Positions 12,843-18,049 of a DNA stretch of 48,626 nucleotides are shown here, piece after piece. Every line of letters starts with the position of its first letter. Position 1 is the stretch's first letter. The notes beneath the pieces are model-generated. The model made no database searches. It saw only the letters and a list, made by a program, of their open reading frames with translations, and had not been told where the DNA came from. The stretch is from contig JAOOJU010000003.1 of assembly GCA_028407765.1 (NCBI GenBank), positions 1 to 48,626 of the forward strand. Reading direction: 5' to 3'. A program made the position numbers and the translations under genes. Origin of the DNA: Rickettsiales bacterium. Lineage in GTDB: Bacteria > Pseudomonadota > Alphaproteobacteria > Methylaequorales > Methylaequoraceae.

Positions 12843-14492
12843 GTGAGTAGAATTAAATCCCAAAATAAAAAAATATATTTTTTTATTTTCTTCGCATTAA
12901 TTATTTTTTTGCAGGGTATTTTTTTAATTCCTCCATTGGATAGAGATGAATCAAGATTCGCCTCAGCATCAAAGAATATGATTGAAACTAATGACTATAT
13001 TGATATTAGATTGGAAAACGAATCAAGATATAAAAAGCCAGTGGGAATTTATTGGGCTCAGTCACTCACCACAATTTTACTAGGAAAACCACCATATGAT
13101 AAAATATGGACTTATAGAATACCTTCTTTATTTGGGATTTTATTAAGTATAATCTTAATTTTTTTATCTATTAAGAAAATTTTCAATCAGGACATTGCGC
13201 TTCTAACTTCTTTCTTTCTCTCAACGTCCTTACTTTTAATAAGTGAAATTAATCAAGCAAAATCAGATGGATTATTATTCTTATTTATAAATATATGTAA
13301 TCTGATAATTTTAAAAAATATCTCAAGATATGAAAATAATAAATTTTATGATCAGTCTAATTTAGATAATCTTATTTTTTGGTGTTCACTTGGGCTTGGC
13401 ACTCTCATTAAGGGTCCAATAATCATAATATTTGTCGGTGTTCCCTTACTCTCGTTTTGTCTAATTAAAAAAGACTTTTATTTTGTCAAATCACTTCATT
13501 CATTTTCTGGCTATTTAGTATATTCTTTAATTGTTTTTCCATGGTTTATATTAATCACTATCAAATCTGGAAGTTCTTTTTGGCATGAATCGGTGATTAA
13601 TGATCTCCTAAATAAGGTAAAATCAGGACAGGAGTCTCATGGTTTTTTCCCAGGTTATTATACTCTACTTTTATTTTTATTTTTTTGGCCTGGATGTACT
13701 TTCTTAACAACTACAATTAAATCAATTTTTTTAAATTTTAGTAATGACTATAAAGGAAATTTGAAGCTTTTATATTTAATATGTTCTTTTTTACCATGTT
13801 TTTTGCTATATGAATTAATTCCAACGAAGTTGCCGCACTATGTTTTACCCGCATATCCAGCTTTAAGCATTTTAACTAGTATTTTTATTATTGACGCTAT
13901 TAGAGAAAATAAGGACTTTCTTTATTCGAAAGTTAACACTTTTTGTTTATTGTTATACCCAATAGCTTTTATATCTTTACTATTAATTGCGATTATCCAA
14001 TATTCAAAATTTGAATTTTCAACAATGATTATTTCCTTATACCTAATGGCAATTACTTTGTTTATTGCATATCAGTTTTTCTTGAAAAAAAATATTAAGA
14101 AATTCTTTATTTCGTGCTTTGTTTTTCAGATTTCAGTATATCTCTGCCTTGTTCATTATATGACACCTAAACTTGAAACATTTTGGATTGCAAAAAAAAT
14201 AAATAATATTATCGAAATAAACTCCGAAGAACTTGAAAATATTTATCATTATGGTTTTAATGAACCTAGTCTTGTTTTTATGATAGGACATAAATCCCAG
14301 AGGCTAATACCAGAGGTTATGTTAAAAAAAATAAGGAATTTTGAGGAGGGTTTGTTTGTTTTAACTGAGAAAGAGGCGAGTATTTTTGACGATCTTTTGC
14401 AGAATGATCAGCAACTTAAATTATTAAATTCATTTGAGGGGTTTAACTACTCTAAAGGAAAGAAAATAAAATTTTATATTTTTAAGAATTAA
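12843..14492 (+). CDS. ArnT/GT39-type lipid A or LPS glycosyltransferase (Rgt-like)
   Basis: PPLDRDESRF, RYKKPVGIYWAQ, YRIPS, LIKGP, GQESHG, PTKLPHYVLPAYP, EPSLVF, GFNYSKG; multi-TM; GTG start. Confidence 0.9.
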   Translation: MSRIKSQNKKIYFFIFFALIIFLQGIFLIPPLDRDESRFASASKNMIETNDYIDIRLENESRYKKPVGIYWAQSLTTILLGKPPYDKIWTYRIPSLFGILLSIILIFLSIKKIFNQDIALLTSFFLSTSLLLISEINQAKSDGLLFLFINICNLIILKNISRYENNKFYDQSNLDNLIFWCSLGLGTLIKGPIIIIFVGVPLLSFCLIKKDFYFVKSLHSFSGYLVYSLIVFPWFILITIKSGSSFWHESVINDLLNKVKSGQESHGFFPGYYTLLLFLFFWPGCTFLTTTIKSIFLNFSNDYKGNLKLLYLICSFLPCFLLYELIPTKLPHYVLPAYPALSILTSIFIIDAIRENKDFLYSKVNTFCLLLYPIAFISLLLIAIIQYSKFEFSTMIISLYLMAITLFIAYQFFLKKNIKKFFISCFVFQISVYLCLVHYMTPKLETFWIAKKINNIIEINSEELENIYHYGFNEPSLVFMIGHKSQRLIPEVMLKKIRNFEEGLFVLTEKEASIFDDLLQNDQQLKLLNSFEGFNYSKGKKIKFYIFKN

Positions 14493-15271
14493 TGAAACAT
14501 TTAGAACAAAAATTTGAATTACTATTATCTGTTAAATTATTCATTTTGATTGTTATTTTCACGTTATTATTTTTCCATTTTATTGATTTACCGCTTTATG
14601 AATACTCAAGATCTTTAAATGAAGTATTTTTTTTTTTTTTTCAGGAAATTATTGACCCTTTTTCAGATATCGTTGATCCAGGCAATGTAATAGTAATTTG
14701 TATTTTTTTATGGTTGATGATAAATCAAACTAGAAAAATTTTAAATGAGCCAAAAAAAATTAGAATCCTAACGGAGAAACTTGGTTTTAAAAAAGAGTGT
14801 ATTGTTGAGTCAATGAGATATTATTTATTGATAATTAAACATATAATTTCATCGATTCTGATAACTGGAACTATCCTTCATATTTTGAAGTATATATTGG
14901 GCGTGGCAAGGCCTAAGTATTTCTTTTTAAAAGGATACGAAAGACAAGATTTCTTTAATTTTGAGCATAAAGTTAATTCATTGCCGTCGGGTCATACTCA
15001 AGCTGCATTTACAATAGCTATACTTTTTATATTATATTTTAACAGGTATAACTTAATTATTTTGACCATTGCTTGTTTATTGGGTTTGGCAAGAATTTTT
15101 ATGAGTGCACATTTTCCAAGTGATATAATTCTAGGAGCATACATTGGATCTTTTTTTCCAATTATTATATACAAACTTTATTTCCTTGATAAATTTAAAG
15201 ATTTAGATGGTGAAAAAATTTTTGATTTTAGGAATTTTTTAAAAATGTTATATTTAAAGATTTTAGTATGA
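14492..15271 (+). CDS. PAP2 phosphatase, probable lipid A 1-phosphatase (LpxE-like)
   Basis: All three PAP2 motifs: KYILGVARP, SLPSGH, ARIFMSAHFPSD; coupled to the ArnT-like gene (TAATG). Confidence 0.85.
   Translation: MKHLEQKFELLLSVKLFILIVIFTLLFFHFIDLPLYEYSRSLNEVFFFFFQEIIDPFSDIVDPGNVIVICIFLWLMINQTRKILNEPKKIRILTEKLGFKKECIVESMRYYLLIIKHIISSILITGTILHILKYILGVARPKYFFLKGYERQDFFNFEHKVNSLPSGHTQAAFTIAILFILYFNRYNLIILTIACLLGLARIFMSAHFPSDIILGAYIGSFFPIIIYKLYFLDKFKDLDGEKIFDFRNFLKMLYLKILV
14627..14641 (+). repeat. T15 homopolymer inside the PAP2 gene, in frame (FFFFF)
   Basis: gaagta-T15-cagg read directly; longest homopolymer I found in the window. Confidence 0.9.
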
Positions 15272-15600
15272 AAACGAAATATTTCTTTTGCCTTTTGTTT
15301 CTAAGTTTCTTTCCACTAAAAGACTCTCTATCGGCTAATTGGTGTAAAGCAATATACCCATTTAGTAAAGAAGCTTTTGATGGTGATTTTAATAAACAAT
15401 TATCACTATGTAAAAACAATGATAATTTATTTTTATCTATCCATTCAAGATATGATAATGCATTGCATTTACTTCACACAAGTATTGCTAGTTTTTGTGA
15501 CTTGTCAAAGCAAGTTATTAAATCAGAAGTGAAGAAGAATGATTCTTCTTTCTACTCTTCTGTATGTGTATTTAGAAGACATAAATTAAGAGAAGAGTAA
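15268..15600 (+). CDS. Hypothetical small secreted protein with four Cys in the mature region
   Basis: Signal-peptide-like N-terminus ending SLSA; start overlaps PAP2 stop (ATGA). Confidence 0.7.
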   Translation: MKTKYFFCLLFLSFFPLKDSLSANWCKAIYPFSKEAFDGDFNKQLSLCKNNDNLFLSIHSRYDNALHLLHTSIASFCDLSKQVIKSEVKKNDSSFYSSVCVFRRHKLREE

Positions 15601-15644
15601 ATTTATTAAAGCTAAACTATTTCATAATATGTCGTTTATGATTT

Positions 15645-15809
15645 ATGCTTAGTTTAATATCGAATATAAGACTCAATAGAATCAAAGAAGATAGACTTGT
15701 TGGATTTAAAAAAGAAATTAATAATTATACAACTTCAGAATTAGTCGGGCAAACTGACGATGGTTTGAACAATTTTACTTCAGAGGTTTGGTTAGCCCTA
15801 TATAGATAA
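15645..15809 (+). CDS. Putative 54-aa small protein
   Basis: Hand translation MLSLISNIRLNRIKEDRLVGFKKEINNYTTSELVGQTDDGLNNFTSEVWLALYR; stop abuts the terminator hairpin; no SD. Confidence 0.5.
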   Translation: MLSLISNIRLNRIKEDRLVGFKKEINNYTTSELVGQTDDGLNNFTSEVWLALYR

Positions 15810-15842
15810 CAATAAAACCCTGTTTAAATCAGGGTTTTATTG
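15810..15842. terminator. Bidirectional intrinsic terminator
   Basis: Perfect 13-bp inverted repeat CAATAAAACCCTG-tttaaat-CAGGGTTTTATTG; GC core with U-rich tails in both directions, between two convergent small ORFs. Confidence 0.88.
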
Positions 15843-15849
15843 GAGGAAA

Positions 15850-15924
15850 TTAAAATAGACTAGAGATTAATAAGAAAAAGAATATTGAACTAAGGCTAAT
15901 TGCACAAATTCTAGTTAAATACAT
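15850..15924 (-). CDS. Putative 24-aa hydrophobic single-TM peptide
   Basis: MYLTRICAISLSSIFFFLLISSLF; GGAG 6 nt upstream of ATG; own promoter upstream and terminator downstream. Confidence 0.62.
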   Translation of the reverse strand: MYLTRICAISLSSIFFFLLISSLF

Positions 15925-15942
15925 ACTAATCTCCAATTATAC

Positions 15943-15971
15943 AATATATAGATTATAAATATTCAAGTCAA
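15943..15971 (-). promoter_or_regulatory. Sigma70-type promoter for the small-peptide transcript
   Basis: Minus strand TTGACT (15971-15966), N17, TATATT (15948-15943); each box 5/6 consensus. AT-rich background lowers specificity. Confidence 0.6.
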
Positions 15972-16031
15972 TCAATATATAGTTTTTTTTTTCTTTAATT
16001 TACAAATAATTTTCCTATTATCATATGGATT

Positions 16032-17306
16032 ATGAAAAAAAAAATGAAAATTGCCGTAGTTGGTAGTGGGATAAGCGGACTATCTTCTGCATGGTTGATA
16101 TCAAAAAAATATGACGTTTGTTTGTTTGAAAAGAATGATTATTTGGGTGGACATTCAAATACTCAAACAATAATAACTAATTGTGAAAAAAAAAAAATAA
16201 ATGTAGATACCGGTTTTATAGTTTTTAATGAACAAAATTACCCTAATCTTAAGGAGTTTTTTAAACTTTTAGAAGTTGATACATATGAGAGTAATATGTC
16301 TTTTTCAGTTTCTATGTTTAATAAAAAATTTGAATATGGAGGCGAAAATATAAACTCACTTTTTGCCCAAAGGAAGAATATTATTAGTTTAAACTTTTGG
16401 ATTATGATATTTGATCTGGTAAGGTTTTACAATAATGCATCTATCGATATGTTTAAGTTTCAAAACATATCTGTTGGAGAATATTTATCAAAAAAGAAAT
16501 ATAGTAAAACTTTTATTTATAAGCATTTATATCCAATGGCTGCAAGTATATGGTCATCAAATGTCAATGAAATTGAGAATTTTCCATTTCCATTTTTTAT
16601 AAGATTTTTCAAAAATCATGGTCTCTTAAGTTTAAGAGAAAGGCCTAAGTGGAGGACAGTAAAAAATGGTAGTAAGTCATATGTTAAAAAAATACTCGAA
16701 AAATCTAAAATTAAAATACATAAATCTGAAGCCGTGATAAATATTTCAAGAGCCAATAGAAGAGTTCATTTACAAACTAATAAAAATAAATACATTTTTG
16801 ATCATGTCGTACTAGCATCTCATCCAGATGAATCACTCAAACTGTTAAACGATCCGAGTAAAGATGAACAAACATCATTATCAAAAATAAAATACCAAAA
16901 AAATACTGTGTATTTACATAGTGATAATAAATTTATGCCAAAAAACAGAAAAGTCTGGTCAAGTTGGAATTATATTGATTTTAATGAAAAACCTAATCAA
17001 GATCTCTGTGTGACATATTGGATGAATAATTTACAAAACTTAAATACAGGGGATGAAATTTTTGTATCCCTTAATCTACCAGAATTACCGGATAAAAATA
17101 AGATCTTTAAAACAATTCATTACTCACATCCATTATATTTATGCGACACTATCTCTGGGCAAAAAGGACTATCAAAAATACAAGGCCATAATAATACTTG
17201 GTATTGTGGAGCATATTGTGGAATGGGTTTTCATGAAGATGGAATAAAATCTGGCTTGACTATTGCCGAAAAAATAACAGATACCAAACGACCATGGATA
17301 AAATAA
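16032..17306 (+). CDS. FAD-dependent oxidoreductase COG2907 (UfaD-like fatty-acid desaturase)
   Basis: IAVVGSGISGL, LGGHSNT, VDTGFIVFN...YPNL, FFKNHGLL, W.SWNY, TYWMN.LQ, GFHEDG. Confidence 0.9.
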   Translation: MKKKMKIAVVGSGISGLSSAWLISKKYDVCLFEKNDYLGGHSNTQTIITNCEKKKINVDTGFIVFNEQNYPNLKEFFKLLEVDTYESNMSFSVSMFNKKFEYGGENINSLFAQRKNIISLNFWIMIFDLVRFYNNASIDMFKFQNISVGEYLSKKKYSKTFIYKHLYPMAASIWSSNVNEIENFPFPFFIRFFKNHGLLSLRERPKWRTVKNGSKSYVKKILEKSKIKIHKSEAVINISRANRRVHLQTNKNKYIFDHVVLASHPDESLKLLNDPSKDEQTSLSKIKYQKNTVYLHSDNKFMPKNRKVWSSWNYIDFNEKPNQDLCVTYWMNNLQNLNTGDEIFVSLNLPELPDKNKIFKTIHYSHPLYLCDTISGQKGLSKIQGHNNTWYCGAYCGMGFHEDGIKSGLTIAEKITDTKRPWIK

Positions 17307-18049
17307 GTTTTGTTGAAGATAGTATTTATCGAGGTAAGGTTTTTCATAAACGCTTTATTCCTTTTGAGCATAGTTTTTCTTACAATCTATCCTATCTCTG
17401 GATAGACGTTCAAGTTAAGGAATATAGGTTTCTTAAATATAATAAAGTTTCTTTAATTAGTTTTTTTGATTGTGATCACGGTGAAGTTGGAAGAGATAAA
17501 GGAGAATCTCTGTTTTCGTATCTAAAGAAGGAATTGAGGAAAAAAAAAATTTATAATACTTTTTTCATTAAAGTCCTATGCTTACCACGAATTTTGAATT
17601 ACCAATTTAATCCGATTTCCGTTTTTGTATGTTTTTCCAAAAATAAACAACCTGTAGCAATAATTTACCAGGTATCTAATACCTTTGGAGAAAGGCATGC
17701 CTATATAAGAAAGTTACCCAGCAAAAATTTCAAGAGTTTAAAAAAATTCCATGTTTCGCCATTCTTCGGAGTAAGAGGTCACTATAAGATAAGTTTTGAG
17801 ATTTCAGAAGAAATGTTAAGATTAATGATTAATTACGGTATTAGAGAAAAAAAACTTCTTACTGCCAGTTTCAATGGAGAGGCCAAAACTATTAATGAAC
17901 TTAATTTATTAAAACTAATCTTTGTTAATTGCCTTCAAAATTTTAAAGTGACATTAGGAATTTATTATGAAGCATTGAAATTATGGTTCAAAGGTGCAAC
18001 TTATAATAAGAAACCAGGCAAACCAGAAAATTTTTCCACGAAAATATGA
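17294..18049 (+). CDS. DUF1365 family protein (UfaO-like)
   Basis: G.V.H.RF.P..H.F.Y, LPR...Y.FNP.S, VSNTFGERHAY, KKFHVSPFF, IYYEALKLWFKG. Confidence 0.92.
   Translation: MDKISFVEDSIYRGKVFHKRFIPFEHSFSYNLSYLWIDVQVKEYRFLKYNKVSLISFFDCDHGEVGRDKGESLFSYLKKELRKKKIYNTFFIKVLCLPRILNYQFNPISVFVCFSKNKQPVAIIYQVSNTFGERHAYIRKLPSKNFKSLKKFHVSPFFGVRGHYKISFEISEEMLRLMINYGIREKKLLTASFNGEAKTINELNLLKLIFVNCLQNFKVTLGIYYEALKLWFKGATYNKKPGKPENFSTKI

Follow-up and report, generated by a model that had tools for sequence, protein, structure and literature searches.

Does an apparently vacant stretch of DNA in a streamlined marine bacterium hold a gene, and if so, does that gene act through its peptide, through its RNA, or through both? 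The question is raised by a 48,626-nt stretch from a Rickettsiales bacterium (assembly GCA_028407765.1, contig JAOOJU010000003.1; hereafter the window), in which an original prediction, made from the letters alone, had described a hidden transcription unit for a hydrophobic 24-residue peptide and had likened it to a type I toxin gene, a small membrane regulator, or a dual-function small RNA (sRNA). All of the elements listed there are present on the minus strand in the order given: TTGACT (15971–15966), 17 nt, TATATT (15948–15943), the Shine–Dalgarno (SD)-like ATTGGAG (15937–15931), a 6-nt spacer, and an ATG at 15924 that opens a 24-codon reading frame. Downstream of the TAA (15852–15850) follow TTTCCTCCAAT with CCTCC at 15846–15842, a 13-bp hairpin (15842–15810), and TTATC. 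The unit spans approximately 15805–15982, somewhat wider than first proposed (15810–15971).

Marine bacteria with streamlined genomes are commonly regarded as having very little regulation, and hardly any of their small genes and RNAs have been annotated. Genome comparison identifies the small gene as a core gene that stands on its own, in single copy, in one order-level lineage of marine Alphaproteobacteria with small, low-GC genomes. It represents a new family of structured RNA that codes for a small peptide and is specific to this lineage. Because it is core to the order and its structure is backed by covariation, this small RNA gene offers a concrete and testable regulatory candidate.

Conservation of the Small Gene

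Judged from the window alone, most parts of the small gene are no more than chance would supply. The DNA here is 25–29% G+C, a composition at which 24-codon open frames are common; from base composition we estimate a chance of about 1 in 8 for such a frame in DNA this AT-rich. Between 13000 and 19000, promoter-like sites number 39 against 39.8 expected at the shuffled rate, and terminator-like sites 2 against 1.6. The outliers in the single sequence are the hydrophobicity of the peptide, the fold of the RNA, and the rarity of the SD. The grand average of hydropathy (GRAVY) of the peptide, 1.83, places it in the top 1.3% of the 2606 open reading frames (ORFs) of 20–30 aa in the genome, and the predicted fold of the small RNA reaches −33.6 kcal/mol (z = −5.5), a stability equaled by 0 of 200 shuffles. 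The remark that a clear SD is uncommon here also stands: GGAG precedes 6.8% of the 990 genes crudely called in the genome, against a background of 2.8%, GGAGG precedes 1.0%, and SD use in this genome is very low. What lifts the observation above chance is its conservation in relatives.

Among 24 other family genomes, a DNA search with window positions 15788–16001 retrieved matches of 71–79% nucleotide identity (E ≤ 1e-23) in 20; the remaining four, which are 54–89% complete, gave chance-level matches only (best E 0.002–0.006), as did 16 genomes from other families of the class. A covariance model combining structure and sequence (R1), built from 19 sequences, was then applied to the family collection of 42 genomes, which amounts to the whole order and contains 14 genera. 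The model matches 36 of the 42, including all nine genomes that are at least 90% complete, and covers 13 of the 14 genera, with the six genomes lacking a match again being 54–89% complete; it matches none of 149 genomes that each represent another family of the class. Copy number is one per genome, except in two genomes with 5–6% contamination, which hold two full copies on separate contigs.

The locus is syntenic as well. In 19/19 loci, the gene order reads PAP2 phosphatase, 110-aa ORF, 54-aa ORF, hairpin, small gene (on the opposite strand), a flavin adenine dinucleotide (FAD)/amine-oxidase-like gene, and DUF1365. The flanking proteins are only 34–60% identical in amino acid sequence among relatives, which makes the small gene by far the best-conserved DNA of the region. 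Conservation thus supports the idea of a mini gene that is transcribed and terminated independently of its neighbors, with both hexamers of the predicted promoter retained in 19/19 complete loci and a terminator stem that covaries. As for the conservation in relatives that the original prediction had named as a check, ORF and locus are indeed kept with synteny, but compensatory changes between the SD and a downstream anti-SD sequence are absent.

Beyond the family collection, an exact 20-mer from the invariant part of the gene was found in 97 stretches of a larger genome collection, 80 of which were examined. Thirty-two of these are homologues in marine Alphaproteobacteria, for example single-cell genomes, “Pelagibacteraceae bacterium TMED13”, and “Rickettsiales bacterium”. 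In the remaining 48, the 20-mer is an opposite-strand ribosome-binding site (GGAGG, spacer, and ATG) of Clostridia, Bacteroidota, and others; these were rejected as relatives, being unrelated look-alikes that arose by chance or convergence. A longer invariant 26-mer occurs in 96 metagenome contigs, with 0 matches in viral contigs. The Rfam search that had been suggested for the unit yielded no family: nothing was reported over 15850–15940 at E up to 10, and no family reached its gathering score anywhere in the window. Nor was a description of the element found in literature on sRNAs and small proteins of Pelagibacter, SAR11, HIMB59, and AEGEAN-169. The passages of PMC5069720 that were consulted contain nothing relevant, although its tables of transcription start sites possibly list small RNAs of related plankton.

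Coding Evidence

Within the family, the frame varies in the manner of coding DNA. Column entropy at codon positions 1, 2, and 3 is 0.48, 0.27, and 0.80, respectively, and the synonymous share of pairwise codon differences is 0.445 in frame versus 0.11 and 0.075 out of frame. Serine codons alternate between AGT and TCN, and alanine appears as GCA, GCC, GCG, and GCT. Frame and stop are kept in all of the first 19 homologues, which begin with ATG in place (15), with ATG one codon later (2), or with an upstream GTG (2). A larger variant set was obtained by pooling 125 genome and metagenome rows and removing 26 duplicates, 17 5′-truncated rows, and 2 rows with N, leaving 80 distinct DNA variants. 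Among these, 69 contain ATG-started frames of 22–27 codons, 8 have GTG only, and 3 are broken or lack a start; the 77 that are open with a start codon specify 45 different peptides.

The encoded peptides follow the pattern M-x-[IL]-T-[KR]-x-C-A-x-[ST]-x-S-S-x-F-...-L-L-[VI]-x-S-L-F, with one Lys/Arg at position 5 and, after it, ~19 residues of hydrophobic span, a length sufficient to cross a membrane. Searches returned 0 Pfam families at E up to 0.1 and 0 NCBIfam families at E up to 10, and four exact forms of the peptide are absent among ~15 billion predicted proteins. Codon-level comparison shows the peptide to be under purifying selection. The proposal of a hydrophobic peptide gene accordingly gains support from the GRAVY value, the coding signature, and the 77 of 80 open variants, and if it were proven to act as a membrane regulator or a toxin, the peptide would represent a new family of small proteins.

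RNA Structure and Start-Site Masking

The RNAalifold consensus of the small RNA comprises two elements: helix 1, in which codons 18–20 pair with the SD purines of the leader and with the first base of the AUG, and the terminator. Across 34 distinct genome sequences, 98% of helix 1 cells are paired, compared with 29–51% in slid controls. Compensatory changes occur at three pairs and G·U pairs are frequent (pair types include GC 15/GU 11/AU 7; CG 27/UA 6/UG 1; and GC 30/AU 3/GU 1). The terminator stem, 97% of whose cells are paired in the same sequences, also covaries, with six pairs changed on both sides and one pair split between GC (20) and AU (14). None of 500 shuffles equaled the whole structure, terminator included, in paired fraction or covariation score. 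The 5′ domain folds with −15.8 kcal/mol (z = −2.0) on the minus strand versus −6.7 kcal/mol (z = −0.1) on the plus strand; since the G·U pairs would become C-A mismatches in the complementary strand and the fold energy favors the minus strand, the structure is assigned to the minus-strand RNA. In one divergent metagenome variant (L235:126-257), a 2-nt deletion shifts the second half of the ORF out of frame, helix 1 is rebuilt from wholly different bases, and tail and terminator are intact; this variant could be either an RNA-only descendant or an assembly error.

Helix 1 is predicted to hide the start site. To expose the bases from the SD to AUG+5 takes 12.4 kcal/mol; the median for 397 genes of the genome is 3.2 kcal/mol, and just two of them cost as much; the homologue median of 9.8 kcal/mol corresponds to the 98.5th percentile. 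A masked SD had been foreseen, with the 3′ CTCCAAT (15845–15839), in this genome an exact complement of ATTGGAG, as the masking partner. The complementarity is real, and SD and AUG are occluded by a covarying helix, but the partner is codons 18–20 and not the 3′ CUCCAAU. In predicted ensembles, the leader forms a median of 13.4 pairs with the 3′ part of the ORF and 0.03 with the 3′ untranslated region (UTR). Pairing of the SD with CCUCCAAU was rejected as a conserved structure: 61% of its cells pair against 38–55% in slid controls, G10–C102 is paired in 3/19 sequences, and covariation is absent. An inner helix of ATAACAAAA with TTTTTGTTAT is paired in 83% of cells with no covariation beyond controls and is not claimed.

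A covarying helix and a buried start would also suit a purely noncoding sRNA, in which the hairpin and the AT-richness of the DNA would have left an open frame incidentally. Such an RNA would have the classical shape of 5′ stem, single-stranded linker, and terminator, and 8 of the 80 variants do lack an ATG, with 3 more broken and yet retaining helix 1, tail, and terminator. An incidental frame would not be expected to show three-base periodicity (codon position 2 varying least and position 3 most), synonymous differences at a share of 0.445 in frame versus 0.11/0.075 in the other frames, switches between serine codon families, or 77 open variants across 45 peptides; moreover, most of the ORF lies outside the only helix with covariation support. 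We consider this explanation highly improbable.

Start-site masking bears equally on a type I toxin–antitoxin pair, in which a membrane-damaging peptide would be silenced by the fold of its mRNA and by an unseen RNA antitoxin; an antisense transcript, or one that reads through from the converging operon, could fill the latter role. Known type I toxins are patchy in distribution and often multicopy, whereas this gene is single copy and occupies the same place in 19/19 loci and 9/9 near-complete genomes of the order. A single-copy, syntenic, and near-universal gene fits a housekeeping or regulatory role better than a toxin. The peptide suits a toxin in size and hydrophobicity (24 aa, GRAVY 1.83), and its mRNA pairs the 5′ end with the 3′ part of the ORF and so hides the SD, as described for aapA1 (PMC5416894). 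The plus strand has a weak antisense promoter-like site (TAGACT, 16–18 nt, AAAAAT), which starts in the invariant stretch discussed below. This site matches at 8/12 positions, and no conserved antisense promoter exceeds that score; the plus strand lacks a stable fold, and matches to Pfam or NCBIfam toxin families and to viral contigs are likewise lacking. With no antitoxin RNA evident, no toxin family matched, and a single-copy syntenic core gene in hand, the toxin label does not hold up well; we judge it quite improbable, and a small membrane regulator or a dual-function sRNA fits better.

An Invariant CCUCC Tail in a Lineage without Detectable Hfq

The end of the ORF and the linker behind it form an invariant tail. 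A 26-nt stretch covering both is identical in 33/34 distinct genome-derived sequences and contains 20 columns in a row without any variation, third codon positions included; mean column entropy is 0.99 in the leader and 0.52 in the ORF. Four of the five bases of its CCUCC are predicted to be unpaired in 33/33 homologues, with the fifth closing the terminator stem. CCUCC is the core of the 16S anti-SD. The 16S rRNA of one family member (L163), located by an Rfam model search, ends in ...GGATCACCTCCTTTCT, the canonical CCUCC 3′ end. Hfq (PF17209) was not found in any of 16 family genomes, five of them at least 93% complete, and was found in 9/9 genomes of other families in the class.

Taken with the coding evidence and helix 1, the tail suggests that the small RNA probably has a second function at the RNA level. 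Our tentative preference is for a dual-function RNA, namely a self-masked mRNA for a small membrane peptide whose invariant tail has an RNA-level role. According to this proposal, the predicted σ70-type promoter would drive an RNA of ~125–130 nt ending at the intrinsic terminator. Helix 1 would keep translation low, as in self-masked mRNAs of other small hydrophobic peptides, and a ribosome that gets through would open it. The peptide would insert into the inner membrane and serve there as a small regulator or a subunit, and the exposed tail would, in what we regard as the simplest and most likely scheme, pair independently of Hfq with G-rich, SD-like sites of other mRNAs. A bolder version holds that, in this Hfq-less and SD-poor order, the core ~130-nt RNA makes a self-controlled membrane peptide and doubles as a trans-acting anti-SD mimic, a decoy or silencer of the few mRNAs that have kept strong SD sequences, and so tunes a small SD-dependent regulon; in that specific form, we consider the proposal unlikely. 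If the CCUCC tail does act in trans, it would represent Hfq-free riboregulation in a genome that barely uses the SD.

Several observations weigh against a dual-function RNA. The predicted start site is strongly occluded, and the inner helix that appears in many minimum-energy folds has no covariation support. Eight of the 80 variants have just an upstream GTG, without an SD, and three (L152, L218, and L235) are broken or without a start; in addition, the 80 metagenome rows were chosen by an exact 26-mer that itself fixes the last three codons and the stop. Target scans for the tail, by exact complementarity of at least 9 nt and by RNAduplex against 988 start regions, gave no coherent set, and in this 67%-complete genome no target rose above the yield of AT-rich or Gly-Gly coding sequence. 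Invariance of the tail might instead come from a protein site or from a DNA-level element on the other strand. Translation is predicted from comparison, and RNA contigs at the locus carry neither strand nor ends. These contigs, four in number, come from one seawater metatranscriptome run that contains 0.12 of the sampled words: one of 171 nt with two differences covers 15687–15856, and others cover 15808–15856 and 15827–15888, their ends continuing as a relative’s version of the ORF. As they give no strand, ends, or level, they were not counted as evidence of transcription. Whichever way the RNA functions, the gene provides a target for marine metatranscriptome and ribosome-profiling data.

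Much of this could be accommodated by a small-protein gene and nothing else, that is, a self-masked 24-aa mRNA whose tail is kept for cis reasons (two-way termination, mRNA stability, a protein-binding site, or a plus-strand element) and has no function in trans. The clear coding signature, the masking of the start by helix 1, the target scans without convincing targets, and a terminator common to the converging gene are all in keeping with it, as is the weak plus-strand promoter-like site, which begins in the invariant stretch and is present in 14/20 sequences at spacing 16. However, an 8/12 promoter match is at chance level in this DNA, and 20 invariant bases exceed what the approach to a terminator or the context of a stop codon usually needs. 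The invariance, moreover, spans genera whose proteins are ~50% identical, and the stretch is predicted to be single-stranded in every homologue, like the seed of an sRNA. We regard a small-protein gene with a tail kept in cis as possible, if doubtful, and retain the dual-function RNA as the working proposal.

Comparison with Known Systems

By sequence and by defining features, the small gene does not clearly belong to any of three known groups, namely aapA1-type toxins, dual-function sRNAs, and CcsR. Self-masked type I toxin mRNAs are represented by aapA1/IsoA1 of Helicobacter and further by hok/Sok. With the former, the small gene shares a tiny hydrophobic peptide and a ribosome-binding site hidden by long-range pairing of the 5′ end; there, the fold of the full-length transcript impedes translation (PMC5416894 for both points). 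Compared with aapA1 and hok, the pairing partner here lies inside the ORF instead of at the 3′ end, an antitoxin RNA was not found, and the gene is a single-copy syntenic core gene with no sign of activation by 3′ processing and no sequence-family match.

Dual-function sRNAs such as SgrS/SgrT, RNAIII/Hld, SR1/SR1P, AzuCR, and rnTrpL/peTrpL resemble the RNA predicted here in being short RNAs with their own promoter and terminator, a conserved ORF, and a separate conserved single-stranded stretch; a review lists ten small proteins of such RNAs (PMC12310071). They differ from the present case, in which the ORF fills most of the RNA and joins the masking hairpin, the lineage is without detectable Hfq, and both translation and pairing targets are putative. 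CcsR or “cuckoo” RNAs (PMC8034643) are alphaproteobacterial, bear an anti-SD motif rich in C, and originate in the 3′ UTR of an mRNA for a small protein, features that they have in common with the small RNA. Their motif, CCUCCUCCC, is found in two hairpin loops after a DUF1127 gene (PMC8034643), whereas here a single CCUCC lies in the unpaired linker behind an ORF for a hydrophobic 24-aa peptide. There is no association with DUF1127, the ORF and its two small neighbors have no Pfam family, and no Rfam match was obtained.

Small inner-membrane regulator peptides include PmrR, which acts on the PAP2-family protein LpxT, as well as AcrZ, MgtS, and KdpF. The likeness consists of size, one hydrophobic span, a single chromosomal copy, and a conserved neighborhood, with a PAP2 gene 0.6 kb away in the present case. 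The small peptide nevertheless has no sequence similarity to any of the four, and no partner was identified. None of them is known for a covarying helix that masks its own start or for a CCUCC tail that never changes.

Promoter Region and Neighborhood

The coordinates of the unit and of its two small neighbors are collected in Table 1.

Table 1. Features of the small gene and of the adjoining small ORFs (window coordinates)
Feature	Coordinates	Strand	Remarks
Upstream 10-bp near-palindrome, CTATATATTG	15973–15982	−	adjoins −35; candidate operator or UP-like element
−35 hexamer TTGACT	15966–15971	−	TTGACA in most relatives; 10/12 promoter match
Second 10-bp near-palindrome	15942–15951	−	contains −10 TATATT (15948–15943)
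Leader with SD-like ATTGGAG (15937–15931)	15925–15937	−	predicted transcription start ~15936, ± a few bases
Helix 1, 5′ arm	15924–15932	−	part of SD through A of AUG; reaches 15937 in this genome
ORF, 24 codons + stop	15850–15924	−	single-pass hydrophobic peptide MYLTRICAISLSSIFFFLLISSLF
Helix 1, 3′ arm	15864–15872	−	codons 18–20; reaches 15859 in this genome
Invariant 26-nt stretch, AGTCTATTTTAATTTCCTCCAATAAA	15836–15861	−	last three codons, stop, and linker with CCTCC (15846–15842)
Intrinsic terminator	15805–15842	both directions	13-bp stem and U-run; also ends the converging 54-aa gene (+)
54-aa ORF	15645–15809	+	inside the supposed gap; ends at the hairpin common to both genes
110-aa ORF	15268–15600	+	signal-peptide-like N-terminus; overlaps the end of the PAP2 gene by 4 nt

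The promoter is predicted to be of near-consensus σ70 type with 17-nt spacing; its −35 and −10 hexamers match at 10/12 positions and align at the same site in each of the 19 complete loci. In the leader, relatives keep a purine-rich stretch and not the sequence itself. Two copies of a near-palindromic pattern, C[A/T]ATAT[A/G]T[A/T]G, bracket the −35 hexamer 31 nt apart. The upstream copy, which sits between the promoter of the small gene and the divergent oxidoreductase operon, reads CAATATATTG or CTATATATAG in relatives, both symmetric variants, and is kept in 19/19 complete loci; the second, CTATAT[A/G]TTG, is likewise present in all 19. Such 10-mers occur 16 times in the genome against 33 expected, and this is the sole paired locus in the 1.13-Mb assembly. 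The palindromes are possibly an operator pair, through which a DNA-binding protein might control the promoter, perhaps jointly with that of the divergent oxidoreductase/DUF1365 operon.

The gap from 15601 to 16031, originally taken to be the only large one in the window and empty apart from the small gene, turns out to contain the conserved plus-strand 54-aa gene, and other gaps of >150 nt are seen in a crude gene call of the window. This 54-aa ORF, kept in 19/19 related loci at 34–55% amino acid identity, is likely an unannotated small protein gene. The 110-aa ORF is kept in 19/19 loci at 37–61% identity, and neither matched a Pfam or NCBIfam family. No tRNA or transfer-messenger RNA was found in the window. 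The left flank (from 12843 to 15271) encodes a PMT_2 glycosyltransferase and the PAP2 phosphatase, whose gene lies 0.6 kb from the small gene, and the right flank (16032–18049) holds the FAD/amine-oxidase-like gene and DUF1365, divergent from the small gene. The gene after DUF1365 looks, by eye, like a cyclopropane-fatty-acid-synthase-like methyltransferase. The small gene is positioned between two membrane-related clusters.

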